64,000 nt of DNA. Origin: a bacterium. GTDB lineage: Bacteria; Verrucomicrobiota; Kiritimatiellia; CAIVKH01. Under the pieces are notes generated by a model that was not told the origin of the DNA, did not search any database, and was given only the letters and a program-made list of their open reading frames with translations. A program made the position numbers and the translations under genes. The stretch lies in NCBI GenBank assembly GCA_043802525.1, contig JAZDKY010000062.1, forward strand, positions 8,446 through 72,445, given 5' to 3'. Of this stretch, positions 15,035 through 58,197 are shown piece after piece. The first letter of the stretch is position 1; each line of letters begins with the position of its first letter.

Positions 15035-15168
15035 GGAGACTGTGGACTATCGACTATCGACTATCGACCATCGACTATGGACTGTGGAGCTTGGACTGTG
15101 ACTATCGACTATTGACCATCGACCATGGACTATCGACCTTTGACTATGGACTTTCGACCATTGACCAT
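15035..15168. repeat. Degenerate heptamer array (GACTATC/GACCATC/GACTGTG), downstream arm of cassette 1
   Basis: 7-nt periodicity visible; reverse complement of the 15629-15738 array. Confidence 0.9.
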
Positions 15169-15169
15169 G

Positions 15170-15607
15170 TCATGAGAGCAGGCGCGGCAAGAGTGCAAGT
15201 CCCAGCATGATGGTGCTCGAAAATCTTGCGAGATTTCTTGCGACCGTTCCGTTCTCCTGTTCGACAGCCGTGATCAAGCCATGCAGGGTGGAAAAGACGC
15301 CATTGATTTGTTCCTGCATACGTTCCTGATCTTCTTTCGAGAGATAACCCAGTCGCTGCGCGAGGTGAACAAAATATTCCGTTTCAGCGAGTGATCCGCG
15401 TGCAATGTACAAGAAGTGCAAATAGTGACGTTTCGAATCCAGCGCAGCACCTTCCGCGATGTTGGCGGGAACGGAGTATGACGCGCGCCGCAGTTGAGAC
15501 GTCAGACCGTACACTTCGCTTTTCGGGAAGATCGCAGAAAGCTCATAGATCCCAACGGTAAGATCATCCGCCATCTGCCACGTTCTGATTTTCTTATAGT
15601 TCCTCAT
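15170..15607 (-). CDS. Four-helix-bundle protein (23S rRNA IVS protein / Avd-like family)
   Basis: FPKSEVYGLTSQLRRASYSVPANIAEG and FLYIARGSLAE; AGGAGG RBS before ATG at 15607; extra hydrophobic C-terminal tail. Confidence 0.92.
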   Translation of the reverse strand: MRNYKKIRTWQMADDLTVGIYELSAIFPKSEVYGLTSQLRRASYSVPANIAEGAALDSKRHYLHFLYIARGSLAETEYFVHLAQRLGYLSKEDQERMQEQINGVFSTLHGLITAVEQENGTVARNLARFSSTIMLGLALLPRLLS

Positions 15608-15628
15608 CAGTCCGGCCTCCTGTTTGTC

Positions 15629-15738
15629 GGTCCATGTCAAAGGTCGATGCTCAATGGTCGATAGTCAAAGGTCAAAGGTCGATAGTCAAAGGTCGATGGT
15701 CAATCCTCAGAGGTCAATCGTCAATGGTCCACAGTCCC
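15629..15738. repeat. Degenerate heptamer array (GATAGTC/AAAGGTC), upstream arm of cassette 1
   Basis: 7-nt periodicity; outer end gtccacagtccc pairs with ggagactgtggac at 15035-15047. Confidence 0.9.
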
Positions 15739-15741
15739 ACA

Positions 15742-17115: not shown

Positions 17116-17147
17116 GGGCTTGTTCGTATACCAGCATTCCACCGGTG

Positions 17148-18287
17148 ATGAAAGTCTCCTTTCTCGTTCCTGACATCGCAGGCCCTGTTCTTGGTCCGGT
17201 GACCGTGCTCGCGCGATCTCTCCAGGGCTCGTGCGACGTGGAGGTCGTGGGGCCGGATCTCGGGCAGGGCGTATGCCCGATGTACCGCAACACGTTCCCG
17301 TATCGTGCAATTCCCTGCCCCCGCATTTACAGGTTCCCTGATTTCTTCAGGGAGTCGGGCCCGTTATGCCGCGCCCTGACGGGCGATGTCATTATCGCGG
17401 TGAAGGCCTATGCCGACACAGTGCCGCTTGCGCTGTGGGAGAAGTTCCGCCGTGGGAAAAAGGTCGTGGTCTATCTCGACGAATGGGATGGCGCGCTTTT
17501 CCGCCAGCAGCCCTTCCCTGCGCGGTGGGGCCGGGCGTTTCGGAACCTGCATCATCCCCTCGACGAAGCCTACCACCCGCTGGTTGAATCCTGCATTCGG
17601 TGGGCGGACAACGTGATTTCCACCAGTACATTCCTTCAGACGAAGTTCGGCGGCCGCATCGTACATGCGGGCGTTGACATGGACTTTTTCAAGCCGCAGG
17701 ACCCGGCCGTCACCGCGAGCCTGCGACGCGATCTTGGGCTGGACGGAAAGAAACTGATCGTTTTCGGCGGGGTCGTTCGCCCGCACAAGGGTGTCGAGAT
17801 CATTCCCGACGCGCTGGCGCGGCTCGGCGACGACCGTATCCGTCTGCTCGTGGTCGGGCCGCGCACAGACCACCTTGAACGGCTCATGAAAGACTCGCGG
17901 CTCGGACGGTACGTCGTCTGTGCGGGCCCGCAGCCGAAGGAACGGATGCCTGAATTCCTTAACCTCGCCGACCTGGTCGTGCTTCCGCTGGTGGACTCGC
18001 TGCTTGCGCGATCGCAGACGCCGTGCAAGATATTCGAGGCCATGGCCATGGAGAAGCCGGTCATCGCGACCGCGATCTCCGACCTGCCGCTGATTCTGGA
18101 AGGGTGTGGCTGGGTCGTGCCCCCGGGCGACGCGGATGCGCTGGCGAGGGTGATTGGTGAGGTGTTGGCCGATCCCACCCGCGCTGCGGCGCGAGGCGCG
18201 GCCGCGCGGGAGCGTTGTGCGAGACTTTACAGCAAGGAGCAGACGGGGAGGGATTTGATGGCGGTTCTTGAGGACGTTGTTCGTTGA
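17148..18287 (+). CDS. GT4 glycosyltransferase
   Basis: GVDMDFF, HKGV, PCKIFEAMAMEKPVIAT, VPPGD. Confidence 0.92.
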   Translation: MKVSFLVPDIAGPVLGPVTVLARSLQGSCDVEVVGPDLGQGVCPMYRNTFPYRAIPCPRIYRFPDFFRESGPLCRALTGDVIIAVKAYADTVPLALWEKFRRGKKVVVYLDEWDGALFRQQPFPARWGRAFRNLHHPLDEAYHPLVESCIRWADNVISTSTFLQTKFGGRIVHAGVDMDFFKPQDPAVTASLRRDLGLDGKKLIVFGGVVRPHKGVEIIPDALARLGDDRIRLLVVGPRTDHLERLMKDSRLGRYVVCAGPQPKERMPEFLNLADLVVLPLVDSLLARSQTPCKIFEAMAMEKPVIATAISDLPLILEGCGWVVPPGDADALARVIGEVLADPTRAAARGAAARERCARLYSKEQTGRDLMAVLEDVVR

Positions 18288-18340
18288 TTGTTGCTCGTTG
18301 ATTGTTGATCGTTGCTCGTTGTTTGTTGTTCGTTGTTTGA
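18269..18340. repeat. Heptamer array (CGTTGTT/CGTTGAT/CGTTGCT), left arm of cassette 2
   Basis: 7-nt periodicity; begins tgaggacgttg like 34984 and 39418 (tgaagacgttg); inverted partner at 18800-18843; contains the GT4 stop codon. Confidence 0.9.
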
Positions 18341-18384
18341 TTGATGCATTGTGCCGGCATCGGCGATTTGATGGAGGCGAGAAG

Positions 18385-18781
18385 ATGGCTACTATTACAC
18401 AACTGGAAGAATTGGATGCTTACCAAGGTGGCGCGGGAAATGCGGAAGCAGGTGTCCGTATTCTGCAGGACACTCCCGCGCGAAGAGGAATACCGGCTGA
18501 AGGATCAGATTCTTCGATCCAGCCGCTCGGTTACCGCAAATATTGCCGAGGGATTCGGGAGGCACCATCATCAGGAGAACACGCAGTTCTGCCGGCAGGC
18601 ACGCGGTTCACTGGTCGAGACCCTGGACCACCTGAACGTCGCGTTGGACGAGGAGTTTCTGGGCGCGGAGGACTACGACAAACTGAGGACCGGGGTCGAA
18701 AAGGCTTGGCAGGTCCTGAACGGATACATCTCTTATCTTCAACGCTGCGCCAAGCAGGGCGTTCCTGAAACTGTCTCATAG
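18385..18781 (+). pseudogene. Four-helix-bundle protein with a +1 frameshift near codon 14
   Basis: GGAGG RBS, MATITQLEELDAY, then an extra C at about 18424 before KVAREMRK...EEYRLKDQILRSSRSVTANIAEGFGR...ARGSLVET. Could be a sequencing error. Confidence 0.8.
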
Positions 18782-18799
18782 CTCTTCGAGCACTTTGTG

Positions 18800-18843
18800 A
18801 ACGAGCAACGAACAACAAACAACGAACAACGATCAACTCCTGA
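18800..18843. repeat. Heptamer array (AACAACG), right arm of cassette 2
   Basis: Reverse complement of 18269-18340. Confidence 0.9.
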
Positions 18844-20021: not shown

Positions 20022-20064
20022 ACCAGTGTCGTGAGTTACACGTTCGATGGACAATGAAACCCTA

Positions 20065-20340: not shown

Positions 20341-20397
20341 CGGAAGACCTTTTTGGGAAAACAAGAGTTCCAACATGTGTAGTATAGGTCACTAACC

Positions 20398-22589: not shown

Positions 22590-22627
22590 CCGGGCGCGGA
22601 AGCATGCCCTACGGGGCAGAAGCACTA

Positions 22628-31860: not shown

Positions 31861-32135
31861 CTATCAATCGAGGAAACCACGAAATAGCCAGCGCGGCACA
31901 GCCGCAACCAGATTCGAGTCAACCACAGAACACACGGAATACGCAGAAGGGAAGAATGCGCTTGCCACAAAAAACACAAAAACGTTCCACCCCCATGCTC
32001 CCGATTCCGAAGGGTCATAGGGGTTGGGGTTATGGTGTTTTTTGTGGCCATCCCTCTTGTGTCTCTTGTGCATCTTCGTGGCCACTCAGAAGAATCTTCT
32101 CAGAAAAACACTGAGTTCACTGAAGGTTCGGAAGA
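31860..32135. repeat. Composite cassette: GACTAT(T)CAATC/AACCACGAAAT motif, GCGCGGCACAGCCGCAACCA motif, inverted GCCAC core, and an arm shared with 56755-56779
   Basis: Matches to 20065-20269, 33370-33415 and 56662-56790. Confidence 0.75.
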
Positions 32136-32202
32136 GGATTTGAACAGGAGGGAACGGAGAGAGCAGAGATGAATGGTGGAGTTTTCTCCGTTTTCTCTGT
32201 TT

Positions 32203-32466
32203 GCCCGGTTTATTCATGAACGTCGACGCGTTCATGAATAAACCGCTTTGCCGGCGGGCACGGACGTGAGTCGCGTACCGCGCCAACGCGGTCACGCGAT
32301 TGGGGACAACGTCCCCTCACGGGTGGACGCGCCCGCAGGCAAAGACGTGATGCAACGCGGTGTCGCACCGCGTTGCAAACGTGGCAGCCCCGTTTGGATG
32401 CGGCACAGCCGCATCCATCACGGCCGCGGAGCGGCGGATTGTTCGCGTTTCGCGAATAATCCGGGT
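32203..32466. mobile_element. MITE-B, full copy with internal GTGA-REP hairpins
   Basis: Ends GCCCGGTTTATTC / GAATAATCCGGGT with TT on both sides; interrupts the motif ctctgtt(g)gctcctgttg that is intact at about 32618-32636. Confidence 0.78.
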
Positions 32467-32533: not shown

Positions 32534-32595
32534 TCTTTCCGCCCGAGAAGAAATGAGAGGATTTGAACAGGAGGGAACGGAGCGAACGGAGATAA
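32534..32595. repeat. Left inverted repeat of the GxxExxY cassette
   Basis: ttccgcccgagaagaaatgagaggatttgaacaggagggaacggag is the reverse complement of about 33188-33235, with few mismatches. Confidence 0.85.
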
Positions 32596-32644
32596 ATCCG
32601 AAATTGTTCTCCGTTGTCTCTGTTGGCTCCTGTTGAAAAATATC

Positions 32645-33127
32645 ATGCATCCCTTGTTTGAAAGAGCGTCAGGGTTGACCGAGACGATCATTGGCGCTGC
32701 CATTGAAGTGCATCGCGACAAGGGACCGGGCCTCATCGAAGCCATCTACGAGTGGTGCCTGACCAAGGAACTCGAACTGCGAGGCCTGGCAGCCTGTGGC
32801 GTAAGTACGATGGCCAGCGCGGTTCAGATTGCGCCACAGATCAAGGCGCGCCGACACAGGCGATACTGCGCCGTATCGTCGAGGAGGCGCAACGCGGAGC
32901 TGCGGCGTAAGATGATGCCGCCCTTCGGGTTGGGGCGGCGCAAGCCCATCTGCGACGTTGCCGCTCCTCGACGATGCACTTGGGCATCGCCTGCGTCGCG
33001 TCGCCTCGCAACTGGGCTTGCGGCGTCCCAACGCGGGTCATCGTACTTTCGCCAGAGGCTGCTAGCCTGGGTGAGCCAGAAAATCGTGTTGATCCACCGC
33101 CTTATTCTCCCAGGAGCGAACCAATGA
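32645..33127 (+). pseudogene. GxxExxY protein (PD-(D/E)XK-type) remnant with in-frame MITE insertion and internal deletion
   Basis: IIGAAIEVHRDKGPGLIEAIYEWCLTKELELRGL, insert, AWVSQKIV, then directly the C-terminus IHRLILPGANQ; central D/ExK region absent. Confidence 0.85.
32789..33062. mobile_element. MITE-A, 274 bp, 24-bp terminal inverted repeats
   Basis: gcagcctgtggcgtaagtacgatg ... catcgtactttcgccagaggctgc (2 mismatches), flanked by TG/TA; removal restores ELRGLAWVSQ. Confidence 0.85.
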
Positions 33128-33174
33128 CCGAAGAAAGTCAACAGGAGCGGAGCAAACGGAGAAGGCTCCACGTT

Positions 33175-33237
33175 TCATCTCTGTTCTCTCCGTTCCCTCC
33201 TGTTCAAATCCTCTCATTTCTTCCCGGGCGGAAGGAT
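33175..33237. repeat. Right inverted repeat of the GxxExxY cassette
   Basis: Reverse complement of 32534-32595. Confidence 0.85.
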
Positions 33238-33369: not shown

Positions 33370-33536
33370 GACTATTCAATCGAGAAAACCACTAAATACA
33401 CGAAACACACGAAAATAAGCGGGGCGATGTGACAACTTCCGGCTGGCCTTAGACAGTTACTGATGCGGTTTCGACAGGTTTCCTGCTTGCCAAGTGCCGT
33501 GTTTCTTTCGTGTATTTCGTGTTTTTCGTGGTTTTC
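33370..33536. repeat. Empty 9-mer fold-back cassette (ACACGAAAY arms) upstream of the MBOAT
   Basis: gaaaaccactaaatacacgaaacacacgaaa ... tttcgtgtatttcgtgtttttcgtggttttc. Confidence 0.85.
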
Positions 33537-33579
33537 TGCCTGAAGGGAATCCGCCTTTGGCAAGATCGGACAGGTTGCC

Positions 33580-34983
33580 ATGCTGTTTAACAGTTACGAA
33601 TTTCTTTTCCTTCTCCTGCCCCTGGCGCTGGCGGGGTACTACGCCATCCGGTCCCGGAGTGCCCGCCTCGTGCTGCTGGCGGTGCTGAGCTACGTATTCT
33701 ACGGGTGGTGGGACTATCGCTTCTGCGGCCTGATGATGCTGTCGACGGTCATCGACTACGTGTCCGGGCTCGGCATGGGCTCGGCCGTCTCGGAACGGAA
33801 ACGCAAGGCATGGATAACCGTTTCAGTCATTGCGAACCTGTCGCTGCTCGGTTTCTTCAAGTATTTCGATCTCGCGGCACGGACGATCAACGGCGTGGCC
33901 TCGGCATTCCATGGCGCGCCCGCGGAACTGCTGCCGCTCCTGCACCTGACGCTGCCCGTCGGCATATCGTTCTACACATTCCAAAGCATGAGCTATTCGA
34001 TCGACGTGTACCGTCGCGTCGTGGAGCCGCAACGCTCGTTCCTGCAGTTCGCCTTTTACGTTTCCTTCTTCCCGCAGCTCGTGGCGGGTCCCATCGTGCG
34101 GTACCGGGATATCGCGGACCAGCTTGTGTCGCGATCGCACACGTGGGAGAAGGCGTCGCGTGGAATCACGCTTTTCATCCTGGGCTTCGCGAAGAAGGTG
34201 ATTCTTGCTGACGGGGTGGCGCCGCTTGCCGATGCCGTCTTCGGGGCGGGCCACGCGGGATTGGTGGAAAGCTGGACCGGCGTCGCGGCCTACGCGATGC
34301 AAATCTACTTCGACTTCAGCGGCTACTCGGACATGGCCGTCGGGCTCGGTCTCCTGTTCGGTTTCTCGTTTCCCCAGAATTTCAACTCACCGTACAAGGC
34401 CGTTTCGATCACGGATTTCTGGCGGCGCTGGCACATGTCGCTCTCCACGTGGCTCCGTGATTACCTCTACATCTCGCTCGGGGGCAACCAGCGCGGTACG
34501 TTCCGGACGTACGTGAACCTTTTCCTGACCATGCTGCTGGGCGGTCTATGGCACGGCGCGAACTGGACATTTGTGATTTGGGGCGCGTACCACGGGCTCC
34601 TGTTGGCAGTCGAACGATCACGGCCTTCTCGGAACCTGCTATCGCGGGCTCCGGCGGCGGTGCAGCGGATATTCACGCTTGCGCTGGTCATGGCCGGCTG
34701 GGTCCTTTTCCGCTGCGCATCGGTTCCGGATGCAGTCGGTGTCTTCACGGGCCTGTTGGGCGGCTACGGCTGGATGTCGGGCATGGTGTCGAGCGGGCAG
34801 CATGACCTGTCCCTGTTGATGCTTCCTGTCTGCCTTGGCATCAGTCTTTTCCTGCCGAACACGTGGGAGATCAAATGGCCGCACGGGTGGATTCAGGCCT
34901 TGTTGCTGGCGTTGCTGTTCGTGGCGTGCGTGATGATCATGCTCGTCAACTCGAGTTCACCGTTTCTGTATTTTCAGTTTTGA
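33580..34983 (+). CDS. MBOAT O-acyltransferase (AlgI-like), copy 1
   Basis: LPVGISFYTFQ, FPQLVAGPI, YFDFSGYSDMA, FWRRWHMSLS, GLWHGA, PFLYFQF. Confidence 0.95.
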   Translation: MLFNSYEFLFLLLPLALAGYYAIRSRSARLVLLAVLSYVFYGWWDYRFCGLMMLSTVIDYVSGLGMGSAVSERKRKAWITVSVIANLSLLGFFKYFDLAARTINGVASAFHGAPAELLPLLHLTLPVGISFYTFQSMSYSIDVYRRVVEPQRSFLQFAFYVSFFPQLVAGPIVRYRDIADQLVSRSHTWEKASRGITLFILGFAKKVILADGVAPLADAVFGAGHAGLVESWTGVAAYAMQIYFDFSGYSDMAVGLGLLFGFSFPQNFNSPYKAVSITDFWRRWHMSLSTWLRDYLYISLGGNQRGTFRTYVNLFLTMLLGGLWHGANWTFVIWGAYHGLLLAVERSRPSRNLLSRAPAAVQRIFTLALVMAGWVLFRCASVPDAVGVFTGLLGGYGWMSGMVSSGQHDLSLLMLPVCLGISLFLPNTWEIKWPHGWIQALLLALLFVACVMIMLVNSSSPFLYFQF

Positions 34984-35105
34984 TGAAGACGTTGCTGGTT
35001 GATCGTTGCCCGTTGCCCGTTGTTTGTTGCTGGTTGATCGTTGTCCAGTCATCAACAACGAACAACCAACAACGAACAACCAACAACCATCACCCGACAA
35101 CATGA
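34983..35105 (+). repeat. Empty heptamer hairpin cassette 3, open as a 40-aa mini-ORF
   Basis: GTTG-rich arm, short loop, CAAC-rich arm; ATG overlaps the MBOAT TGA (TGATG) and its TGA overlaps the next ATG (ATGA). Confidence 0.85.
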
Positions 35106-36328
35106 CCATTCACGCACAACGCCGCGGCTTCCCCATCGTCGCCCTCGTGGGCCTCGTCTGGCTGGCCTGCGGTGCCGGGGACTGGTTCATGCGGTTCCAC
35201 TGGTACCGATGGCAGGCCACGCTCGTGGCAGGACCCGCGGTCGAGACCGTCGGGCCTTTTGCATCGATGCGGACCATCGAGGTCCCCGTGCGCCGGGGGG
35301 GGGATCTCTCGCACCTGCTTGGGATTCCGAAGGTCGCGGCCCTGTTTGAAGACGAGCGTCCTGCCATGATCGAGACGTCGGACGAGTTCGGCTATCGTAA
35401 CCATCCTCCGACGGCAACAAACAACTACAGCGTAGTGGTTACCGGTTCGAGTTTCATGAATTCGGGCTACCCGATGACCAACATACTGGCCTCTCGGCTC
35501 TCGCGGCAACTGGGGGTACCGGTCTATAACGCGGCGTTTCCAGGGCGCGGTCCGTTCATCGGCCTGATCCGGTTTCTCCAGGACGAACGGTTCGTACGGA
35601 ATCCACCCCGGGTCCTGGTGTGGGGTGTTGTTGAGCGCGAAATTGGCGCGCACGCATTCGGAGGTCTGCTCTACCAGATAGAGCTGCTGGTCAAGCACAC
35701 GATCGAAGCTAGGAAACAGGACTCAAGCATCCTGTGGCGGAACCTGCGCCCCGGATCGCTCAAGACCGCGCTGCCCGATTCGTCAGCCATAGCCCAATTG
35801 AGTCGGCGTATCTGGACGTTCATTCGTTACTATGTATTTGGTCGGATGAACCCTGCGGTCGCCGCCTCGGGTCCTTCGTGGAAGGGTGCTCCGTTCCTTT
35901 TCTATTCGGCCGCCGTTGAATCCTTGCGCTGGATGCCGGCGCAGCGCATCGTGCCCAGCGTTGCCGACGATATAGCGATCGTGTCCGATTACCTGCGGGC
36001 TAGGGGCATCGCGCTGGTCATGCTCCTTATTCCCGATAAAGAGCAAGTCTATCGCGAATTCCTGCCGGGCGTCATGCTCGACGAGGCAAATCCGATTCCG
36101 CCTTCGTGCCTCGACGAACTGGGCGAGCGTCTGCGGGTGAAAGATGTTCCAGTTGTCAGCCTGCTTGGCCCCTACCGCGAGGGTGCCGGGCAGGGAAGGC
36201 TTCTCTACTGGCGCGACGACACGCACTGGAACAGCGAAGCCATCGCCATGGCCGCCGAGGCCGTCAGCCATGTCGTTGAGCCGCTGCTGGCGGCGCAGCC
36301 TGCTGCGCCGGGTAGTGGGGCCTTTTGA
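35102..36328 (+). CDS. AlgJ/AlgX-like SGNH O-acetyltransferase, copy 1
   Basis: N-terminal TM, DEFGYRN, GSSF, VERE, IPDKEQVY, YWRDDTHWN. Confidence 0.88.
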   Translation: MTIHAQRRGFPIVALVGLVWLACGAGDWFMRFHWYRWQATLVAGPAVETVGPFASMRTIEVPVRRGGDLSHLLGIPKVAALFEDERPAMIETSDEFGYRNHPPTATNNYSVVVTGSSFMNSGYPMTNILASRLSRQLGVPVYNAAFPGRGPFIGLIRFLQDERFVRNPPRVLVWGVVEREIGAHAFGGLLYQIELLVKHTIEARKQDSSILWRNLRPGSLKTALPDSSAIAQLSRRIWTFIRYYVFGRMNPAVAASGPSWKGAPFLFYSAAVESLRWMPAQRIVPSVADDIAIVSDYLRARGIALVMLLIPDKEQVYREFLPGVMLDEANPIPPSCLDELGERLRVKDVPVVSLLGPYREGAGQGRLLYWRDDTHWNSEAIAMAAEAVSHVVEPLLAAQPAAPGSGAF

Positions 36329-38014: not shown

Positions 38015-39417
38015 TGCTGTTTAACAGTTACGAGTTCCTGTTCTGTCTTCTGCCCGTTGCCTTGTGCGGCTACTATGCCGTCCGGTACCCGGGCATCCGC
38101 CTGGTCCTGCTGACGCTGCTCAGCTACCTCTTCTATGGGTGGTGGGATTACAGGTTCTGCGGCCTCATGCTGCTCTCGACGGTGATCGACTACGTGTCCG
38201 GCCTCGGCATGGGGGCGGCTGACACGGATTGCAAGCGGAAGGTATGGATCGCGGTGTCGGTCATCGTGAACCTGTCGCTGCTCGGTTTCTTCAAGTATTT
38301 CGACCTCGCGGCGCGGACGATCAACGGCCTGGCGGCGGCGTTCCATGGCGCGCCCGAGGAACTGCTTCCGCTCCTGCACCTGACGTTGCCCGTTGGTATC
38401 TCGTTCTACACATTCCAGAGCATGAGCTATTCGATCGACGTGTACCGTCGCGTCGTGGAGCCGCAACGCTCGTTCCTGCAGTTCGCCTTCTACGTTTCCT
38501 TCTTTCCGCAACTGGTTGCGGGCCCCATCGTGCGGTACCGGGATATCGCGGACCAGCTTGTGTCGCGATCGCACACGTGGGAGAAGGCGTCGCGTGGAAT
38601 CACACTTTTCATTCTGGGCTTCGCCAAGAAGGTGATTCTTGCCGACGGGGTGGCGCCGCTTGCCGATGCCGTTTTCGGGGCGGGGCACGCGGGATTGGTG
38701 GAGAGCTGGACCGGCGTCGCGGCCTACGCGATGCAGATCTACTTCGACTTCAGCGGCTACTCGGACATGGCCGTCGGGCTCGGCCTCCTGTTCGGTTTCT
38801 CGTTTCCGCAGAATTTCAACTCACCGTACAAGGCTGTTTCGATCACGGATTTCTGGCGGCGCTGGCACATGTCGCTTTCCACGTGGCTCCGTGACTACCT
38901 CTACATCTCGCTCGGGGGCAACCAGCGCGGCACGTTCCGGACATACGTGAACCTCTTCCTGACCATGCTGCTGGGGGGGCTGTGGCACGGCGCGAGCTGG
39001 ACGTTTGTGATTTGGGGCGCGTATCACGGGCTCCTGCTGGCGGTCGAACGATCACGGCCTTCGCGGAACCTGCTATCGCGGGCTCCGGCGGCGGTGCAGC
39101 GGATCTTCACGCTTGCGCTGGTGATGGCCGGCTGGGTCCTTTTCCGGTGCGCATCAGTTTCTGATGCCATCGGTGTCTTTGCGGGCATGTTTGGCGCACA
39201 CGGCTTGATGTCGGACATCATGTTGAATGGACAACTGGATCTGTCACTGTTGATGCTTCCGGTCTGTCTTGCCATCAGCCTTTTCCTTCCGAACTCGTGG
39301 GAGATCAAATGGCGTCACGGATGGGTCCAGGCGCTGTGGCTTGCCGGGTTGTTTGTCGTTTGCGTGATGATCATGCTCGTCAACTCGAGTTCACCGTTCT
39401 TGTATTTCCAGTTTTGA
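38014..39417 (+). CDS. MBOAT O-acyltransferase (AlgI-like), copy 2
   Basis: Same length and motifs as 33580-34983 with a near-identical central region. Confidence 0.95.
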   Translation: MLFNSYEFLFCLLPVALCGYYAVRYPGIRLVLLTLLSYLFYGWWDYRFCGLMLLSTVIDYVSGLGMGAADTDCKRKVWIAVSVIVNLSLLGFFKYFDLAARTINGLAAAFHGAPEELLPLLHLTLPVGISFYTFQSMSYSIDVYRRVVEPQRSFLQFAFYVSFFPQLVAGPIVRYRDIADQLVSRSHTWEKASRGITLFILGFAKKVILADGVAPLADAVFGAGHAGLVESWTGVAAYAMQIYFDFSGYSDMAVGLGLLFGFSFPQNFNSPYKAVSITDFWRRWHMSLSTWLRDYLYISLGGNQRGTFRTYVNLFLTMLLGGLWHGASWTFVIWGAYHGLLLAVERSRPSRNLLSRAPAAVQRIFTLALVMAGWVLFRCASVSDAIGVFAGMFGAHGLMSDIMLNGQLDLSLLMLPVCLAISLFLPNSWEIKWRHGWVQALWLAGLFVVCVMIMLVNSSSPFLYFQF

Positions 39418-39518
39418 TGAAGACGTTGATCGTTGCCCGTTGCTCGTTGATCGTTGTTCCGTCATCAACAACGAACAACCAACAACGAACAACCAACAAC
39501 GAACAACGGAAACCATGA
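39417..39518 (+). repeat. Empty heptamer hairpin cassette 4, open as a 33-aa mini-ORF
   Basis: Same TGATG...ATGA double overlap as cassette 3; 21 nt shorter. Confidence 0.85.
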
Positions 39519-40735
39519 CAACGTTCTCCCATACGAAAGGCTTCCCCGTCGTCGCCGTCGTGGGCCTCGTTTGGCTGGCATGCGGCGCCGGGGACTGGTT
39601 CATGCGGTTCCACCGGTACCGCTGGGGCGATACGCTGGTCTGGAGGAGTCCTGCCATTATCGCGGGGCCGGCGATGCCCATGCAGCAGTGGGATATTCCG
39701 GAGACGCGCGGGGGCGACTTGACGGGTTTTCTTGCGCTCGACTACGTGGCCCGCCGGTTCGAGCAAACGCGTCCCGCCTACACCGATTACAGCGACGAGG
39801 CGGGCTATCGGAACGTTCCGCCCACGGCCGGCCGGAATTTTCCGGTCATCGTCGTAGGATCGAGCTACATGTATGTGGGCGCGCCGATGACGAATATGTT
39901 CAGCGAGCGGCTGGCTGCCGCGGCGCATGTGCCCGTTTACAACCACGCCTCGCAGGCGCATGGGCCGTTCCAGGATCTTCTTCTTTTCTTCGAAAAGGGC
40001 CGCTTTGCAGACCGGCTTCCGCGCGTGCTCATCTGGGGCATCGTGGAGCGTGAAATGCGCGGAGAGGATTTTGAGAACATGTCGCTCCAGTTGAGCGATA
40101 CCGGAAAGCCGCGGAAGATCGTGAACATGCGTTCGATCATCGCGTGGGGAAACCTGGCCCCGCGTGTCGTGAAACAAACGCTGCCCAATTCGTCCGTCAT
40201 CGCGCAGGTGTCCGCCCGCTGGTGGAACATCCTGCGCTATGCGTTGTTGGGAGGGGTCGCGCCGGATGTCGCCATTTCGCAGGGTTGGCCGCGCGACGGG
40301 GAAATCCTGTTCTACACGCCAGCCTTGCGGGCGATGAAGCAGTCGCCGTCCGAGCGGGCCGTGGACAAAGTGGTCGCCGTGATTGAGAAGGTGAAGGAGT
40401 ACGCGCGCGAGCGGGGCATCACGCTGGTCGTCCTGCTGATCCCGGACAAGGAGCAGGTGTACCGGGAATATCTTCCCGACTACCTCAAGAATCCCCCCGG
40501 CTCGATACCACCGTCCTGTCTGGATGAGATCGAGAGCGGACTGCGGAGCCTGGGCGCCCACGTCGTGAATCTCCTGCCGCTGTTTCGCGAACGCGCAGCA
40601 GCGGGCCAGTTGATCTACTGGCGGGATGACACGCATTGGAACGGCGAGGCCAGCGGGTTGGCCGCGGAAGCATGCCTTCTGGAAATTGCGCCGCTGCTGG
40701 CAGCGGCGCCTGACGCGCCGCGGACAGGTCGTTGA
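39515..40735 (+). CDS. AlgJ/AlgX-like SGNH O-acetyltransferase, copy 2
   Basis: DEAGYRN, GSSY, VERE, IPDKEQVY, YWRDDTHWN. Confidence 0.88.
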   Translation: MTTFSHTKGFPVVAVVGLVWLACGAGDWFMRFHRYRWGDTLVWRSPAIIAGPAMPMQQWDIPETRGGDLTGFLALDYVARRFEQTRPAYTDYSDEAGYRNVPPTAGRNFPVIVVGSSYMYVGAPMTNMFSERLAAAAHVPVYNHASQAHGPFQDLLLFFEKGRFADRLPRVLIWGIVEREMRGEDFENMSLQLSDTGKPRKIVNMRSIIAWGNLAPRVVKQTLPNSSVIAQVSARWWNILRYALLGGVAPDVAISQGWPRDGEILFYTPALRAMKQSPSERAVDKVVAVIEKVKEYARERGITLVVLLIPDKEQVYREYLPDYLKNPPGSIPPSCLDEIESGLRSLGAHVVNLLPLFRERAAAGQLIYWRDDTHWNGEASGLAAEACLLEIAPLLAAAPDAPRTGR

Positions 40736-42302: not shown

Positions 42303-43916
42303 ATGAAAGTCCACGCATTCTTGTTTGCGGTCGCGCTCCTGGCGGGCACGCTGTTGTTCATGCACCGGCTTGAGACGGGTGGCGACAACTTGGACTTCAT
42401 GCTCCAGGCGCGGTCTGCGCAGCAAGGCGAGTGGCGCGATGTTTTCTCGTGGTACCGGCCCGCAGGCTATGCGCTCAGTGTGGCTGCGACGCTGGCCTTG
42501 TGCGGCATTCGGCTTGCCCCGGGACCGTTGACCGTGGCCGGCCCGACGTTCCACCTCGTCCAGGCTGTCGGCGTCGTCCAGTTTGCGCTCGCCGCCGTTG
42601 CGGTTTATGTCTGGGCCCGGCGCGTCACCCGCGAGCGCTTCGTGGCGATCGGCGTGGCCTTGCTTTTCGCGTTGAATCAGATGCTTGTGGCGTGGTCGTC
42701 GGTGATCGCCGCGGAGACGTTGCTGGTCCTGCTGGTCTTCGCGGCCCTTGCAGTCTGGGAGGGGACCGACCACATGGCCGGCGGGCGCTGGCAGCGGCTG
42801 GCGCTTTTCGCCGTGCTGGCGGGCGTGGCGTTGTTTGTCCGCACCGCGGCGATCGCCCTTGCGGGCGGTTTCGGACTCTGGATCGTCGTGAAGCGGAAAT
42901 GGACGGGCTCCTATCTCCTCGCAGCCTGCATCACCGGGTTTTTTGTACTGCTTGCCGCCGTGCAAATGGCCCTGCTTAGCAACTTCTACTTCACGCACGT
43001 TGTCGCCGCGGATCCGTATGGCTTCGGTGAAACCGTGTCGTGGGGCGAGCGCCTGCACAACGCCGTCATAACGTACACGGGAGGATGGCCCGATCTCCTG
43101 TTTCCGAAAATCGTTGGCTGCCGCGGCCTGTTTGAGCTCACGGGCCTGGGTCCCCTTGCCGTCCCGTTCACGCTGGCGGTGTTCCTGCTGACCTTGGTCG
43201 GCCTCGCGCGGACGCTGCGGCGCGGTCTGCGGCTCAGCCATTTGTTCCTCCTCTGCTACCTCGTGATATTGCTCGCGTGGCCGGATTTCCTCGTCCGCTA
43301 CATGTTCCCGCTCGCGCCTGTCGGCTTGTGGCTTGTCCTGGAAGGCGTGGCGTGGCTTGCTGAGCGGGTTTCGCGTGGAAGCGCGACCGCGGCGGTGGTT
43401 TCACGGCGCGCCACCGTGTCGTTTGTGGCTGTCGCTGCGGCATGGAGCCTTGCCACGAACGTCTTTGCCGGCGTGAAGAACTGGGACCATATCCTCGAAC
43501 TGCGCGAAAAGCCTCCGTGGGATCCGGCGCGTTATGCCATCACCGGCGAGGACGACTTCGGCGACTACATCACGGCGGGCCTGTGGATCAAGGACCACGC
43601 GCCCGGCGACGCTGTGGTCTTTTGCCGCAAGGCACTGTTTATTGAATTGGTGTCCGGGAGGTTTTGCCGCTACTACACAGGCCATGCGGATGCCGAGGCC
43701 CTGTGGGCGGCGATGACCCATGCCGCCGCGGCAGCTCCGTGCTATATCTTGAAGGATGCCTTCTCCACCGACAGCACGTATGGCAGGGTTCGCAAACTCC
43801 AGCTCGAACCCTTGCTGGAACGTCAAGCCGGGAGCCTGGACGAAGTCCACCGCACAGACTATGGATCCGTGATCTATCGGGTTGCGGATGATCCTGGTGG
43901 ACGATGCGATCCGTGA
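42303..43916 (+). CDS. Multi-TM GT-C-like glycosyltransferase
   Basis: GGDN loop, AET, VRT, RYMFP; polytopic with a soluble C-terminal domain. Confidence 0.65.
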   Translation: MKVHAFLFAVALLAGTLLFMHRLETGGDNLDFMLQARSAQQGEWRDVFSWYRPAGYALSVAATLALCGIRLAPGPLTVAGPTFHLVQAVGVVQFALAAVAVYVWARRVTRERFVAIGVALLFALNQMLVAWSSVIAAETLLVLLVFAALAVWEGTDHMAGGRWQRLALFAVLAGVALFVRTAAIALAGGFGLWIVVKRKWTGSYLLAACITGFFVLLAAVQMALLSNFYFTHVVAADPYGFGETVSWGERLHNAVITYTGGWPDLLFPKIVGCRGLFELTGLGPLAVPFTLAVFLLTLVGLARTLRRGLRLSHLFLLCYLVILLAWPDFLVRYMFPLAPVGLWLVLEGVAWLAERVSRGSATAAVVSRRATVSFVAVAAAWSLATNVFAGVKNWDHILELREKPPWDPARYAITGEDDFGDYITAGLWIKDHAPGDAVVFCRKALFIELVSGRFCRYYTGHADAEALWAAMTHAAAAAPCYILKDAFSTDSTYGRVRKLQLEPLLERQAGSLDEVHRTDYGSVIYRVADDPGGRCDP

Positions 43917-46184: not shown

Positions 46185-46738
46185 ACCATGGAACACTTGG
46201 CGCGGCGCGCCGAAAACCAAGAGAAGAAACCACGAATGAACACGAATTCACACGAAAAAACAAGCACCTCCACGGCGCGGCAAAGCCGTGACCCAAGAGG
46301 AAACCGCAAGGAACGCCCCGCTTGGCCAATCCGCCGGATGCCATGTGCCTCAACCTAAGCATGATCCGAAATACGGCCCATTATGGCGATTGTCGCCAAC
46401 GCGACGTGCGTTGGCCTTGGAGTGCGGTGGCTTGCCACCGCCCTTCTTCGCCGCGGCTTGACGCGGCGTTTTTTTGGCGCGCGTCAAGCCGCACGCTGAC
46501 AAAGCGGCGGCACTCCTTCGCCAATCCGCCGGAGGCAGACAGGGGCTTGCCCGCCAACTGGCGGGCTACGGCGCGCAGGCAAGCCGCCGCACTCCAACAT
46601 GAATGCCTCGGCATTCGTCGCGCCTTTGCGTGATTTGTCTGTTCGCATCTGTGGTTCCCTTGTTATTCGTGTGACTTCGTGTTCATTCGTGGTTTCCGTT
46701 CTTGGGCTGCGGCTTTTCCGCGCCAAGTGTTCTACGGT
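46185..46738. repeat. About 72-bp inverted repeats spanning a divergent intergenic region, with nested REP-like elements
   Basis: 46185-46256 versus 46666-46738, including perfect gaacacttggcgcgg and gaaaccacgaatgaacacgaa blocks. Confidence 0.88.
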
Positions 46739-47823: not shown

Positions 47824-48060
47824 GCCGTAACCATTCCGTTCTCCGCCGAAGGCGGATCCGCCACTGGAGGAAATCACGAATGGACACGAACCAACACGAA
47901 TATCGCTTGAGCGGAAGACGCGCTCGTCCCATTCGCCCAAGACTCACCATCTGGTGAGTCTCCCTGAAGGCTATTCGGATGCGTTAGGGGCCGACGATTT
48001 ATGCAAATTCGTGTTTATTCGTGGTTCTCTTCTGAATGGATACGGCTAAGACGCCGCACC
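47814..48060. repeat. Empty 11-mer (ACACGAA) fold-back cassette between convergent genes
   Basis: cacgaatggacacgaaccaacacgaa ... ttcgtgtttattcgtggtt; internal palindromes ccgccgaaggcgg and agactcacca-tc-tggtgagtct. Confidence 0.78.
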
Positions 48061-48062
48061 GT

Positions 48063-51368: not shown

Positions 51369-51478
51369 AGACCGCGCGCAATGAGTGTCACGGCATGGTT
51401 CCGCTTGGCCGTGGATCACGGTGGCTACACTAAGCCTTGTCAGTCACGCCTTCCGCCGTGTAGTTTCGGGGAATTCGC

Positions 51479-53794: not shown

Positions 53795-53807
53795 AATCGA
53801 CTCATCG

Positions 53808-54773: not shown

Positions 54774-54929
54774 ACAGTTCTACAGTTTCTTCCGGTGGCA
54801 GGGTTGCGACACGATTACGAGTTGTCAATCCGGGCATGACTGCGCATATTGAAAAGCACGTCAGAACGAGTCAATCTGATTTGACTCGGAACAGCCGGAT
54901 GCCGCCACCAGCGATCAACACGATCAAGC

Positions 54930-56663
54930 ATGTCAATCTCCCTGGAAGGGCATCGGTGGATTCACAACAAAGGATGGTACATGGCTGCCGTCGTTGTGGC
55001 GTTCGCTTATGTCCTGACCATCCCGCATGTGTGGCAGTGCGAGGGCGTTGACGAAATCGAATACCTTGGCCTCGCGCATTCGATCGAGCGCGGACACGGA
55101 TTCACGTTGTACGGCGACCCGTACCCGATCTACCCGCCGCTCTACCCGGCTCTGGTGTCGCTCGTCATGCGGTTCGACGTCACGGCCTGGCGTGCGATGT
55201 ATGCGCTCAACGCGTTGATGGGGCTGGCCGGGATCCTTTATCTCGCTTCGTGGCTGCGGAAAAAAGAAGGCCGCGCGGGCTGGTGGGCCGCGTGGTTCTC
55301 GCTCACGTCGTATTTCGCGTGGAGTTTCTCCACCCGTTACCTGATGGCCGAACCGCTTTTCGTGCTGGTCTCGTCCGTTGCGCTGGTGGAGGCGTCGCGA
55401 TGCATGGCTGCGGAGCGCGGAGGGCGGCGCTCTGTCGCTGCGCCGCTGGCGGTGCTTCTCGGCGCGATGACGAAGGTGGTCAACATCGCGTTGACGGCGG
55501 CCCTTTGCGCCGCGGCCGGAAGCCGATGGTGGGCGACGCGCCGCCGGCGCGTGCTCGCCCTCGGCGCGGCGATCGCTTGTGCCGGGTTCGGCTTCGCGGC
55601 AGCGTGGGAATGGCACGGGCGGCAGGTCGCGCCGCATGCCGCCGAATCCTATTTTCGATGGGCTCTGAAATTCACCGGCCTGTCCGGCGAGCGGGCCGGG
55701 ATTGTGGCGCGGGACGCAGGGGAGGGGCTCGGATCGGATGCGACGTTTCCGGTACGTGTTGGCGCCCTCGGTTTCAAGTTGGGGCAGTACGTGGCCTCGT
55801 TCGCGCGCATGCCGGCAAACGCGGGCCCGTTCGCGATGTTCCTGTGGCTGGTGTTCCTGACGGGCCTTGCCGCGCGCGCCAGGCGTGACCCTTCGTCGCC
55901 ATTCGCGTGGTATGTCGCGCTATCGCTTATCATGTTTTCGTTGACGCGCTGGGCATCGAGTTATCACCGCTATCTGTACCCGCTCACGCCGCTGCTGTAC
56001 CTGTTCCTGTTCGAGGGCGCGGCGTGCTGGAAGCGGGCTCTGCTCGATCGGCAGCAGAAGCTGGCATGGCTCGCGGTGGCGGCGTTTGGCGCGGCCGGCA
56101 TACTGTGGACCGTTTCACACGGACTCGCGGGGGAGGGCCACGTCGGCGCAGAGAGGATGTATGTCCTGGCGGTGGGACTCGCCTGCGCGGTTTCGTATGC
56201 GGCGATGGCCGTCGGCGGGTTGTGCGCGTGCTCGGGCCTGGGCCCGTTGCGGAGCGCGTTGCCGTTCGAACGCATCCTGGCCGTCGCGCTTGCCGTTTCT
56301 GTGGCCCACACCAGCGCCATTGCCGTCACACGGTTCAAGCATACGCTGGCGAACGAGACGCTCCATGCGCGCAACCTCGCCGGGGCAGTCGCATGCGGGC
56401 AGTGGGTCAAGGAGAATACGTCCCGGGATACGGTCATCGCGGTTTCGTTGCCGCGGCTCATGTCGTTTCTCGCTGACCGGACCGCGGTGGGCCCCGGCTC
56501 GCACTCCGCGGGTTACGCGATCCTCACCGGAACCCTGCGCAACGTGCCGGCGTTCCGGGAAGACGCGGAGGCCCGATTGAAGTCAGAGGTCGAAGCCTCC
56601 CGGGCAAGGCTGGTGTTTTCATCCGGCGACGCCATGGTGTATAAGCTCCGCGACATGCCGTGA
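54930..56663 (+). CDS. Multi-TM GT-C-like (ArnT/PMT-type) glycosyltransferase
   Basis: DEIEYLGLA, YPPLYP, MAEPLF, RYLYP. Confidence 0.7.
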   Translation: MSISLEGHRWIHNKGWYMAAVVVAFAYVLTIPHVWQCEGVDEIEYLGLAHSIERGHGFTLYGDPYPIYPPLYPALVSLVMRFDVTAWRAMYALNALMGLAGILYLASWLRKKEGRAGWWAAWFSLTSYFAWSFSTRYLMAEPLFVLVSSVALVEASRCMAAERGGRRSVAAPLAVLLGAMTKVVNIALTAALCAAAGSRWWATRRRRVLALGAAIACAGFGFAAAWEWHGRQVAPHAAESYFRWALKFTGLSGERAGIVARDAGEGLGSDATFPVRVGALGFKLGQYVASFARMPANAGPFAMFLWLVFLTGLAARARRDPSSPFAWYVALSLIMFSLTRWASSYHRYLYPLTPLLYLFLFEGAACWKRALLDRQQKLAWLAVAAFGAAGILWTVSHGLAGEGHVGAERMYVLAVGLACAVSYAAMAVGGLCACSGLGPLRSALPFERILAVALAVSVAHTSAIAVTRFKHTLANETLHARNLAGAVACGQWVKENTSRDTVIAVSLPRLMSFLADRTAVGPGSHSAGYAILTGTLRNVPAFREDAEARLKSEVEASRARLVFSSGDAMVYKLRDMP

Positions 56664-56790
56664 CTATTCAATCAATGGAACCACGAAATACACGAAAGAC
56701 AGTTCTTTTTCTGATTGAAACCACCGAATACACTGAAGAACACTGAAAAAAGATTCCGAACCTTCAGTGAACTCAGTGTATTCAGTGGTT
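56662..56790. repeat. Empty fold-back cassette (9/10-mer arms)
   Basis: gactattcaatc+aaccacgaaatacacgaaa; aaccaccgaatacactgaagaacactgaa ... ttcagtgaactcagtgtattcagtggtt. Confidence 0.8.
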
Positions 56791-56840
56791 CACTCCGACA
56801 GAATCAGGTATCTGGAATCTAGTATCGACGCAAACGCACC

Positions 56841-58016
56841 ATGAACGTGGACGCATCATCCGACATCGAGCTTTCGGTCGTCATGCCGTGCCTCAACGAG
56901 GCGGACACGCTCGAGACGTGTGTGCGCAAGGCGCTGCGCGCGATCCAGGAGCATGGCATCCGCGGTGAAGTCGTGGTTGCGGACAACGGCAGCACGGACG
57001 GCTCGCGCGAGATCGCCAAGCGCTGTGGCGCGCGGCTGGTCGATGTTCAAGCCAAGGGCTACGGCAACGCGCTCATGGGCGGCATTGCCGTCGCGCGGGG
57101 TACATTTGTGCTGATGGGTGACGCGGACGACAGTTACGATTTCCTCGAGGTCCCGAAGTTCGTCGAAAAAATCCGGCAGGGATACGACCTCGTGCAGGGT
57201 TGCCGTCTGCCGTCGGGCGGCGGAACCGTGAAGGCCGGCGCCATGCCCTGGTCGCACCGGTGGCTCGGCAACCCGATGTTTTCCAGGCTGTCCCGGTGGT
57301 GGTTTCGCGCGCCCATCCATGACATCTACTGCGGCATGCGCGTCTTCACGAAGCGGCATTACGACAGCCTCGACCAGCGCTGCACGGGCATGGAATTCGC
57401 GACGGAGATGATCATCAAGTCGAGCCTCTACGGCGCGAAGATGTCCGAGGTGCCGATCACGCTCCACCCCGACGGCCGCACGTCGCACCCGCCGCACCTG
57501 AAAACGTTCCGCGACGGCTGGCGCACGTTGCGGTTCTTCATGATGTACAGCCCGAAGTGGCTGTTCCTGGTGCCGGGCCTGCTCCTGATCGCGCTGGGCC
57601 TCGCGGGCTACGCACTCGCGCTGCCCGCGGTGCAGATAGGGAACGCGATCTTCGACGCGCACACGCTGCTTTTTGCGAGTCTTGCCATGCTGTGCGGCTA
57701 CCAGGCGGTACTCTTTGCTGTTTTCACCAAAACGTTCGCGATGAACGAAGGGTTGATGCCGGAGGATGAGCGGACGCTGCGCTTTTTCAAGCTGATCAAC
57801 CTGGAGCGGGGCCTGCTGGCGAGCCTCGTCGCGATGATCCTGGGTCTGGCTCTGCTCGGCTGGGCGGTCAATCTCTGGCGGCTGTCCGGGTACGGGCGGT
57901 TGGATTACGCGAGCACGATGCGGTGGGTGATCCCGGGCTCCACACTGACGGCGCTCGGTTTCCAGACGCTGCTCTCCAGTTTTTTCGTCAGCATTTTGGG
58001 GATGAAGAGACGGTAG
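56841..58016 (+). CDS. GT2 polyprenol-phosphate sugar synthase with C-terminal TMs
   Basis: LSVVMPCLNEA, ADNGSTDGS, GDADDSY, GMEFATEM, FRDGWR. Confidence 0.93.
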   Translation: MNVDASSDIELSVVMPCLNEADTLETCVRKALRAIQEHGIRGEVVVADNGSTDGSREIAKRCGARLVDVQAKGYGNALMGGIAVARGTFVLMGDADDSYDFLEVPKFVEKIRQGYDLVQGCRLPSGGGTVKAGAMPWSHRWLGNPMFSRLSRWWFRAPIHDIYCGMRVFTKRHYDSLDQRCTGMEFATEMIIKSSLYGAKMSEVPITLHPDGRTSHPPHLKTFRDGWRTLRFFMMYSPKWLFLVPGLLLIALGLAGYALALPAVQIGNAIFDAHTLLFASLAMLCGYQAVLFAVFTKTFAMNEGLMPEDERTLRFFKLINLERGLLASLVAMILGLALLGWAVNLWRLSGYGRLDYASTMRWVIPGSTLTALGFQTLLSSFFVSILGMKRR

Positions 58017-58197
58017 ATTCGGGATTCGATGATTCGTTGATTTGATAATTCGTTCATTCGGGATTTGGTGCTCCGAATAACGAATTAACGAATTAACGAA
58101 TCATCGAATTACCGAATCCCGAATATCGAATTATCGAATCCTCGAACCCCAAATCCCGAATATCGAATCAACGAATCATCCAATATCCAAATCCAAC
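58016..58197. repeat. Empty 7/8-mer hairpin cassette 5 (GATTCG / CGAAT arms)
   Basis: gattcgg/gattcgat units followed by cgaatat/cgaattaa units; fills the whole stop-to-start interval. Confidence 0.88.

Follow-up and report, generated by a model that had tools for sequence, protein, structure and literature searches.

Inverted arrays of short words around small PF05635 and PF13366 genes, and as gene-less hairpins, in operon junctions of a Kiritimatiellia genome: a likeness to 23S rRNA intervening sequences

The stretch of DNA analysed here, called the window, spans 64,000 nucleotides of contig JAZDKY010000062.1 (positions 8,446 to 72,445, assembly GCA_043802525.1) from a bacterium of the Verrucomicrobiota class Kiritimatiellia. 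Five junctions between its glycan genes hold a pair of inverted arrays, each made of tandem copies of a degenerate short word. Two pairs enclose a small gene and are called cassettes with a cargo, and three enclose only a short loop and are called empty hairpins or empties. A first-pass annotation, made from the letters alone, had claimed these five, and Tandem Repeats Finder (TRF) and an inverted-repeat search found the arrays of all of them where it had placed them. It had overlooked at least six further elements, one being a decayed cassette with a PF13366 gene. The parts of the five are as follows.

15035..15169, minus strand: cassette 1, downstream arm in the sense of the cargo; some 19 heptamers, GACTATC/GACCATC (TRF 15038-15169)
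15170..15607, minus strand: cargo 1, four-helix-bundle gene of 145 aa; Pfam PF05635, E 5.2e-34; TIGR02436, E 5.2e-33
15629..15738, minus strand: cassette 1, upstream arm in the sense of the cargo; GGTCGAT/GGTCAAA heptamers, degenerate, reading as GACC-type words in sense
18269..18337, plus strand: cassette 2, 5' arm; nine heptamers CGTTGNT (TRF, inverted pairs and fold)
18341..18781, plus strand: cargo 2, PF05635 open reading frame (ORF); Pfam E 2.2e-26, match begins at model position 6
18800..18843, plus strand: cassette 2, 3' arm; AACGAAC units, with the ATG of the next gene at 18864
34984..35105, unstranded: empty hairpin, CGTTGNT / CAACAAC, between an MBOAT gene and an AlgX-like gene
39418..39518, unstranded: empty hairpin, CGTTGNT word, in a paralogous MBOAT / AlgX pair; loop the same as in the 34984-35105 hairpin
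58016..58197, unstranded: empty hairpin, octamers GATTCGNN, with an extra long run on the 3' side; between a family 2 glycosyltransferase (GT2) gene and a methyltransferase gene

Each right arm is complementary to its own left arm, as had been proposed, and the inverted-repeat search pairs them at 83-97% over 32-58 nt. Three words are in use, namely a GACTATC-like one, CGTTGNT, common to three of the five elements, and GATTCGNN. Read directly from the sequence, the outer ends lie within a few nt of the neighbouring stop and start codons. Adjacent genes run in the same direction, also as described, with the correction that cassette 1 and both of its neighbours are on the minus strand. The presumed four-helix-bundle genes of the two cassettes both match the PF05635 and TIGR02436 profiles.

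At cassette 1, the gene 17310-15742 (minus strand) has its stop codon 3-5 nt from the upstream arm, and the ATG of the next minus-strand gene (15025) comes 9 nt past the downstream arm. TRF places the arrays at 15045-15158 (period 7, 16.4 copies) and, as the partner, at 15636-15736, and the inverted pair 15111-15168 / 15647-15704 is 88% complementary over 58 nt. Cargo 1 also matches the five-chain PDB entry 2GSC (E 1.6e-26). Its G+C content at third codon positions (GC3) is 0.58, against 0.76-0.82 in the host genes; the minus-strand ORFs around the cassette have 0.79 and 0.82.

At cassette 2, the stop codon of the upstream glycosyltransferase gene (18285-18287) falls within the 5' array. The arrays are at 18275-18337 (period 7, 9.0 copies) and 18800-18837 (5.4 copies), and the inverted pair 18283-18320 / 18800-18837 pairs at 89% over 38 nt. 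Cargo 2 is probably frameshifted near 18425. Its expected N-terminus MATITQLEELDAYQ is encoded in a different frame, from the ATG at 18385, and an intact relative of 63% identity aligns only from its residue 15 on.

The three empties are fitted as tightly. Hairpin 34984-35105 follows a stop codon at 34981-34983 and reaches the next ATG at 35102, with arrays at 34990-35043 (7.7 copies) and 35053-35101 (7.0 copies). Hairpin 39418-39518 follows a stop at 39415-39417, with the next ATG at 39515 and arrays at 39424-39456 (4.7 copies) and 39467-39508 (6.0 copies), its left arm being about 3 units shorter (4.7 vs 7.7 copies). The MBOAT and AlgX-like pair around these two is duplicated in tandem (33580-36328 and 38014-40735; 89% DNA identity over 1.3 kb), and both duplicates carry one like hairpin between the genes, differing in unit number. 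Hairpin 58016-58197 sits between the GT2 stop (58014-58016) and the methyltransferase ATG (58198); its arrays are at 58023-58060 (period 8, 4.8 copies) and 58074-58196 (8-13 copies), and its inverted pair 58017-58068 / 58073-58124 is 83% complementary over 52 nt.

All five elements are predicted to fold stably, as the first reading of the arms implied. The short ones, in the order above, fold at -44.7, -34.2 and -62.5 kcal/mol with z scores of -5.1, -4.8 and -7.5, and none of 200 shuffles is as good. In the two gene-bearing cassettes a long terminal stem encloses the ORF, with z scores of -4.6 (0 of 100 shuffles as good) and -6.6 (0 of 20 shuffles).

The same build recurs throughout the genome of this bacterium, a draft of 3.42 Mb in 158 contigs with 62% G+C and 79% completeness. 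Our hairpin finder joined TRF arrays of period 5-11 with a pairing test and allowed loops of up to 130 nt. It gave 937 arrays and 170 inverted pairs, which reduce to 138 distinct hairpins or 4.2 per 100 kb, and there are about 14 gene-bearing cassettes. Period 7 is the commonest among 280 arms (145), followed by 8 (59), 9 (27), 6 (26) and 10 (23). The proposed specificity for glycan loci is not borne out, as the 5 short hairpins in the window compare with about 2.7 expected from the genome density, an unconvincing enrichment.

The genome has 11 PF05635 and 5 PF13366 matches, and by eye nine of the former and all five of the latter are flanked by inverted arrays. The two families are split by period: PF05635 genes lie between 6-8-mers and PF13366 (GxxExxY) genes between 9-10-mers, whose arms end as CCACG... 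and ...CGTGG. Identity of the PF05635 paralogues to the first is as low as 13-29%, and every one of them uses a word of its own (GACTATC, GGAGTGNT, AATAACC and GGAGCGTG for four of them). The eight with matchable arms belong to eight different word families, some with just 2-4 empties. As many as 109 of the 138 empties have a word in common with one of 12 resident gene-bearing cassettes, a count in which the zeros for the PF05635 cassette on contig C120 and the PF13366 cassette on contig C32 carry no meaning.

Some copies in this genome depart from the common form. At G000:C1:25762-26304 a TTGGTTA/TTGGTGC word runs for 457 nt beside a 58-nt run of its complement, the usual arm being 30 nt. The weak PF05635 match at G000:C128:10388-11146 is joined at its C-terminal end to a CxxC...CxxC zinc-ribbon region and lacks clear inverted arrays; the PF05635 fold seems to be put to another use there. 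Two similar PF05635 genes that start with MKYERFED may form a separate subfamily, one (G000:C143:7262-7753) lacking flanking arrays and the other (G000:C120:1318-1848) having short GATTTCA arrays only.

The elements are gained and lost between close relatives. Full and empty allelic sites had been predicted, and the junction before argF provides them. It holds a full cassette in the own genome; among 11 relatives of one family it is unoccupied in six, with a spacer of 10-30 nt, has an empty hairpin in four, with four different words, and is full in one, with yet another word. Unoccupied, empty and full states all occur within one genus. At the MBOAT gene before the 34984 hairpin, inspection by eye without a repeat search found no inverted array in the 260 nt past the stop codon in 11 relatives, and an ATG lies within about 7 nt of the stop in 8 of the 11. 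Thus, the hairpins of the window are lineage-specific insertions into very tight junctions.

Their placement follows the direction of transcription. The distance from the stop codon to the arm has a median of 3 nt (interquartile range (IQR) -1 to 7) and is at most 10 nt in 67 of 92 cases, the sample being those of the 138 hairpins with a gene end and a same-direction gene start nearby. The neighbours are co-oriented at 89 of 110 orientable hairpins, divergent at 12 and convergent at 9. Of 64 loci with a callable orientation, 58 have the cargo in the direction of the upstream gene; among 57 loci, the cargo runs with both neighbours in 45 and against both in 3. No sigma-70-like promoter was found inside the cassettes by a scan that may not suit this phylum, and no hairpin of the set was called terminator-like or has a T tail. 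This fits a promoterless cargo that is carried on host transcription.

Insertion is tolerated even within a coding gene. At three loci from three phyla (L022, L057, L080) a PF05635 cassette lies within a DNA-methylase ORF whose reading frame runs on uninterrupted through both arms and the entire cargo, so that the small cargo gene is nested in a different frame of the larger one. At L057 an in-frame empty hairpin lies also upstream in the same ORF. These open frames make RNA-level removal, or a skipped junction, unnecessary for tolerance.

The same association extends far beyond the own phylum. The first-pass annotation had called for a scan of PF05635/TIGR02436 loci for inverted flanks, and these are enriched: among 80 loci, collected with the single-protein query of cargo 1 as its relatives, 67 score above the 95th percentile of mismatched-flank controls and 25 outscore every control. 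The 80 loci span Verrucomicrobiota, Chloroflexota, Acidobacteriota, Bacteroidota, Proteobacteria, Nitrospirota, Planctomycetota, Patescibacteria, archaea and others, with the closest relatives in Verrucomicrobiota bins. By the same control, 23 of 29 PF13366 loci in the own phylum are above the 95th percentile. The junctions taken by PF05635 cassettes include dnaK | dnaJ in Chitiniphilus, accB | accC in Stenotrophomonas and the one before cheW in Nitrospira and Geobacter.

The repeat word goes with the protein. In 61 loci (the 67 minus 6 with stop codons in the match), protein identity correlates with the similarity of arm 6-mers (Mantel r 0.17, matched by 0 of 2000 permutations), and pairs from different phyla alone give r 0.11 (4 of 2000), statistics that are overstated by the non-independence of related loci. 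The mean arm similarity is 0.19 at a protein identity of at least 60% versus 0.012 below 50%.

The arms are constrained in length and sequence. They are about 30 nt long at any period (median 30, IQR 27-34, 280 arms), with the copies per arm going from 5.5 for 6-mers through 4.3, 4.25 and 3.0 for 7-, 8- and 9-mers to 2.9 for 10-mers. As the length hardly changes with the period, it is probably stem length that is constrained. Profiles of the first three word families show, within each family, conservation of 80-100% at the terminal units and in each unit's core, against 40-70% at spacer positions of inner units, where complementarity between the arms is not maintained either. Such a pattern indicates a sequence constraint and not pairing alone. 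Together with the agreement of word and protein, it gives indirect support to a link between each protein and its own arms.

Stop triplets are richer in the 5' arm in 75 hairpins against 22 with the opposite bias, word families being non-independent in this count. We dropped the idea that the heptamers serve to close all reading frames, as only 10 of 138 hairpins close all and 61 have no stop.

Genomes with a single cargo gene also have dispersed copies of its word. Chitiniphilus has one PF05635 gene with GGGAAGG arms and 199 genome-wide matches to three units, many in plus/minus pairs 70-100 nt apart; this count is without a valid control, since reading this pattern backwards only rotates it. 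Several of its contigs terminate in the repeat. Mesorhizobium sangaii has one PF05635 gene, and the octamer word of its arms is found at 7 further sites in the genome, against 0 control matches.

Among eight related genomes, sampled in part, the presence of hairpins tracks that of cargo genes. No hairpin was found in 390, 200 and 400 kb of G015, G004 and G027, which have neither PF05635 nor PF13366, or in 200 kb of G031, with no PF05635 and one PF13366. G020 (one PF05635, two PF13366) has one full cassette and no empties in 400 kb, and G003 (eight and six) has, in 320 kb, 3 empties and several full-size pairs, of which three contain a confirmed cargo ORF; both samples are contigs picked as known cargo carriers. 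In 400 kb, G011 (eight and seven) has 8 empties and a single full cassette.

The counts of the two cargo families co-vary across genomes, both being zero in G004, G015, G027 and G032 and several in G003, G011 and G036, even though the proteins are unrelated. At G003 L243:4306-4917, CAACTTC / TTGAATG arms surround a 132-aa ORF without a Pfam match, which may be a third type of cargo or else an ordinary gene that happens to lie between two hairpins.

The closest known system is the 23S rRNA intervening sequence (IVS), a kinship that had been suggested from the protein family and that holds in the anatomy seen in the accessible text on the Coxiella element. This text describes a 28-bp terminal stem, 3-4 tandem heptamers before a PF05635-type ORF, a heptamer number that differs among strains, RNase III cutting at the first repeat and a 23S rRNA that is 'fragmented yet functional' (PMC4990558). 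The present elements likewise have a PF05635 ORF in the loop, inverted ends whose complementarity gives a long stem, about 28-30 bp in both, and tandem heptamers directly before the start codon; variable copy number, an ORF along the host transcript and ORF decay are further features in common with the IVS as far as described there. They are unlike it in lying in an operon junction or a coding gene and not in 23S helix 9, 25 or 45, and in having large cargo-less families of the same word and a second, unrelated cargo family. The IVS is cut by RNase III according to the same text; the present elements have predicted stems of about 30 bp or more. Rfam and tRNA scans of the window gave no matches, rRNA families included, and the neighbours of the elements are protein-coding.

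A second parallel is with repetitive extragenic palindromic (REP) sequences, whose hairpin-forming doublets (REPINs) accompany a REP-associated tyrosine transposase (RAYT). The RAYT gene is a single-copy Y1 HUH transposase gene flanked by a palindromic repeat that is dispersed gene-less over the genome. Here too, every gene goes with one repeat family, the two are jointly present or absent, and the dispersed palindromes match the flanks of the resident gene, as in the 109 of 138 empties and the single-gene genomes. The differences are that the present cargo is PF05635 or PF13366 and not Y1 HUH, and that arrays of short words replace one fixed palindrome. We also considered Y1 transposases as the mobilisers and rejected them. 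In the own genome 3 of 10 Y1_Tnp genes have a hairpin within 1.5 kb, against a background of 11.7%, which is no association, and none of the 10 is flanked by hairpins on both sides.

Correia elements have fixed terminal repeats at their ends and are limited to one genus, and we know of no gene-bearing form. The accessible description from Neisseria is of small elements with inverted repeats beside genes, which RNase III can bind and either cleave or protect (PMC2649163). Fixed terminal repeats set them apart from the present word arrays.

Cyanobacterial short tandemly repeated repetitive (STRR) sequences are another class of short tandem repeats. Similar words appear in heptamer/octamer papers from 2009 to 2015, including GGGAATC pairs in Xanthomonas (PMC4692102), paired tandem sites in Geobacter metallireducens (PMC2700814) and TAACTGA repeats (PMC4679880), which are read there, in the accessible parts, as G-quadruplexes, regulator sites or translational signals. 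They resemble the present arms in being short tandem words, often in convergent pairs, in operon intergenic spacers. Moreover, the PF05635 cassette of Stenotrophomonas at accB/accC (L036) has GGGAATN arms and that of Geobacter (L038) has AGGGGCA/AGGGTCA arms. Unlike our elements, the repeats have no link to PF05635, PF13366 or rRNA intervening sequences in the accessible parts of those papers.

As to the protein itself, PF05635 is described, in the accessible parts of the sources, as resembling Avd, an accessory protein of diversity-generating retroelements (PMC10053308), and its relative in PDB 2GSC as a homopentamer (PMC4990558). The NCBIfam model of Avd, NF033474, scores 24.4 bits, under its cut-off of 80. 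No reverse transcriptase lies beside the cassettes; the three RVT_1 genes of the genome are at C37, C134 and C20:35293, and some 21 kb separate the C20 one from the closest PF05635 gene.

With moderate confidence, we read the elements as mobile cassettes of the 23S rRNA intervening sequence type, settled in operon junctions and accompanied by cargo-less derivatives. This reading builds on the anatomy, the spread over the genome and across phyla, the matching of word to protein, the different states of occupancy at one junction and the joint occurrence of hairpins and cargo genes, all of them observed, and it upholds the interpretation of the first-pass annotation in part. An element consists of two inverted arrays of one 6-10 nt word that fold back on each other. 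Autonomous-looking copies have one small promoterless gene, either PF05635 (6-8-mers) or a nuclease-fold PF13366 gene (9-10-mers), and cargo-less copies of the same word lie scattered about that genome. They settle a few nt past a stop codon, in tight operon junctions and along transcription, and are gained and lost between congeneric species.

In the operon transcript, the arms may form a stem of about 30 bp or longer, which by analogy with the rRNA version would be a substrate of the RNase III type. The stem would draw the upstream stop and the downstream start together, and insertions may be tolerated for this reason. Each protein would recognise the periodic core of its own word and may thereby maintain or spread its empties, as the RAYT transposase does with REPINs. 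A bolder proposal, which we put forward tentatively, is that the PF05635 and GxxExxY proteins are the trans-acting halves of an unrecognised class of mobile elements, each reading the core of its own word and maintaining or spreading both the cassette and the cargo-less hairpins in operon junctions near stop codons.

Several points weigh against the mobile-cassette reading. MITEs (miniature inverted-repeat transposable elements) also have inverted ends, but no target-site duplication was seen at the six occupied argF-junction alleles, and same-family copies have a common word with differing spelling, unlike ordinary copy-and-paste MITEs. The bias of G-U over A-C mismatches is neutral, both in the 89 empties between co-oriented genes (sense more stable in 40, antisense in 48, p 0.33) and in 67 gene-bearing cassettes (34 vs 32, p 0.38; 58 G-U vs 44 A-C), so there is no sign of RNA-level selection. 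A simple model with five units per arm, to suit a pentameric ring, was dropped because arm length rather than unit number is constant. In the 79% complete genome 29 of the 138 empties lack a resident master; 11 of these are one family, AGGTGTC/AGGTTTC, which flanks PF05635 genes in other phyla. Word sharing at high protein identity could be plain linkage and not recognition. The co-occurrence is drawn from related and partly sampled genomes, with carrier contigs chosen as such in two. To our knowledge, PF05635 has no catalytic activity.

The strongest rival is a regulon, in which the hairpins are binding sites that serve the host, selected at particular junctions, and PF05635 and PF13366 are their autoregulated transcriptional or post-transcriptional regulators. 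Conserved cores beside variable spacers, one word per protein and hairpins at stop-start junctions would be expected of it, and the paired octa- and heptanucleotide sites of Geobacter metallireducens are assigned, in the accessible text, to unidentified global regulators (PMC2700814). We consider a regulon unlikely, however, as the argF junction holds four words in four relatives and nothing in six, and cassettes and empties also lie in frame within a coding gene. Moreover, the cargo genes decay through frameshift or repeat insertion, their GC3 is atypical of the host, and some relatives do without both the cargo genes and the hairpins.

Less probable still is that the hairpins arise by slippage and fold-back, as REP or STRR sequences might, and that selfish genes insert in their loops, the arrays reflecting a target preference. 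Dispersed repeats did enter hairpin interiors at 46260-46660, 32204-32466 and 32790-33140, and family copies vary in spelling and unit number, the latter being unequal even between the two duplicated hairpins of the window. This landing-pad origin is hard to reconcile with a word inherited with its protein across phyla. Under it, PF05635 genes would hardly occupy eight word families, small ones included, with none in the abundant AGGTGTC family, nor would the four genomes without PF05635 matches be free of hairpins in samples of 200-400 kb.

That the hairpins are intrinsic terminators or attenuators of the ordinary kind, or an artefact of assembling a metagenome bin, is very improbable. Stem-loops directly past stop codons would suit a terminator, but these hairpins have no T run, none is among the terminator-like sites, 89 of 110 lie between co-oriented genes and 9 between convergent ones, and the stems reach about 30 bp or longer. 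The artefact is contradicted by the same build in records of strains rather than metagenome-assembled genomes (Chitiniphilus, Mesorhizobium, Pedobacter, Brevundimonas). Hardly credible at all is the intron-like removal of the cassette RNA with re-joined flanks and a mature operon mRNA that skips it, for although the upstream stop and the downstream start do meet at the base of one stem, the methylase ORFs of three loci in three phyla are open in frame through the cassette, a tolerance at the protein level without removal, and the two pieces of 23S rRNA that result from IVS excision are not known to be joined again.

The mobile-cassette reading brings intergenic heptamer repeats and both gene families together as one kind of element, allied to the rRNA intervening sequences. 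PF05635 and PF13366 occur in several copies each in most genomes searched, and our literature search found no function for either. Nor did it find, with supplements and most subscription journals beyond its reach, any paper tying these genes to flanking inverted word arrays outside rRNA, and we cannot be sure that the link is new. If the proteins are indeed trans-acting halves, one mechanism would cover the 23S IVS, cyanobacterial STRR sequences, the Xanthomonas GGGAATC pairs and the 'global regulator sites' of Geobacter, and PF05635 would gain its first function.

The reading also advises caution in deriving function from neighbourhood. PF05635 genes within cas operons are interpreted as functionally linked in the accessible text of one paper (PMC3936711) and appear inside cas operons also in a figure legend of another (PMC10910872). 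Such genes may be mere invaders of junctions.

The further elements in the window include other empties and pairs with 9-10-mer arms.

32133..32202, unstranded: small empty hairpin, 9-mers GAACGGAGN; inverted pair, fold z -3.4
32548..33226, plus strand: decayed cassette with the second cargo type; terminal inverted ends of about 30 nt and 9-mer arrays, fold z -6.1
33383..33537, unstranded: hairpin, 9-mers CACGAAANA, 91-nt interior; inverted pair, TRF, fold z -2.8
46209..46713, unstranded: 10-mer arms CACGAATNNA around a 403-nt interior; inverted pair
47870..48029, unstranded: 10-mer arms CACGAANNNA, interior of about 100 nt, convergent genes on either side; TRF 47875-47901, fold z -5.2
56718..56791, unstranded: empty hairpin, 9-10-mers CACTGAANN; TRF, fold z -7.4

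The decayed cassette contains a GxxExxY / PF13366 gene at 32633-33127 (Pfam E 2.4e-9, residues 15-53; TIGR04256 E 8.7e-10). Only model positions 3-41 of 117 align, short of a full-length family match, and the rest of the gene is replaced by a dispersed repeat; four intact PF13366 copies lie elsewhere in the own genome. An empty hairpin at 32565-32635 lies within the same cassette. The interior of 46209-46713 has no PF13366 gene, and its ORF at 46322-46633 has no Pfam or NCBIfam match; by BLAST against the own genome it contains copies of other dispersed repeats. A solitary array at 56678-56700 is close to the hairpin 56718-56791.

Other repeats of the window differ from the word arrays. An unrelated dispersed element of about 265 nt at 32204-32466 has segments on more than 40 contigs of the own genome at 83-99% identity, several matches ending at contig ends, and has the look of a high-copy MITE. 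The repeats at 32790-33140 and 46260-46660 occur on about 7-20 contigs and sit in the GxxExxY gene and a hairpin interior. Thus placed, they make hairpin interiors seem to draw further insertions. In the glycan cluster, the ORFs 14093-15025 (minus strand) and 42303-43916 (plus strand) are long and have no Pfam or NCBIfam match, the former with a coding-like GC3.

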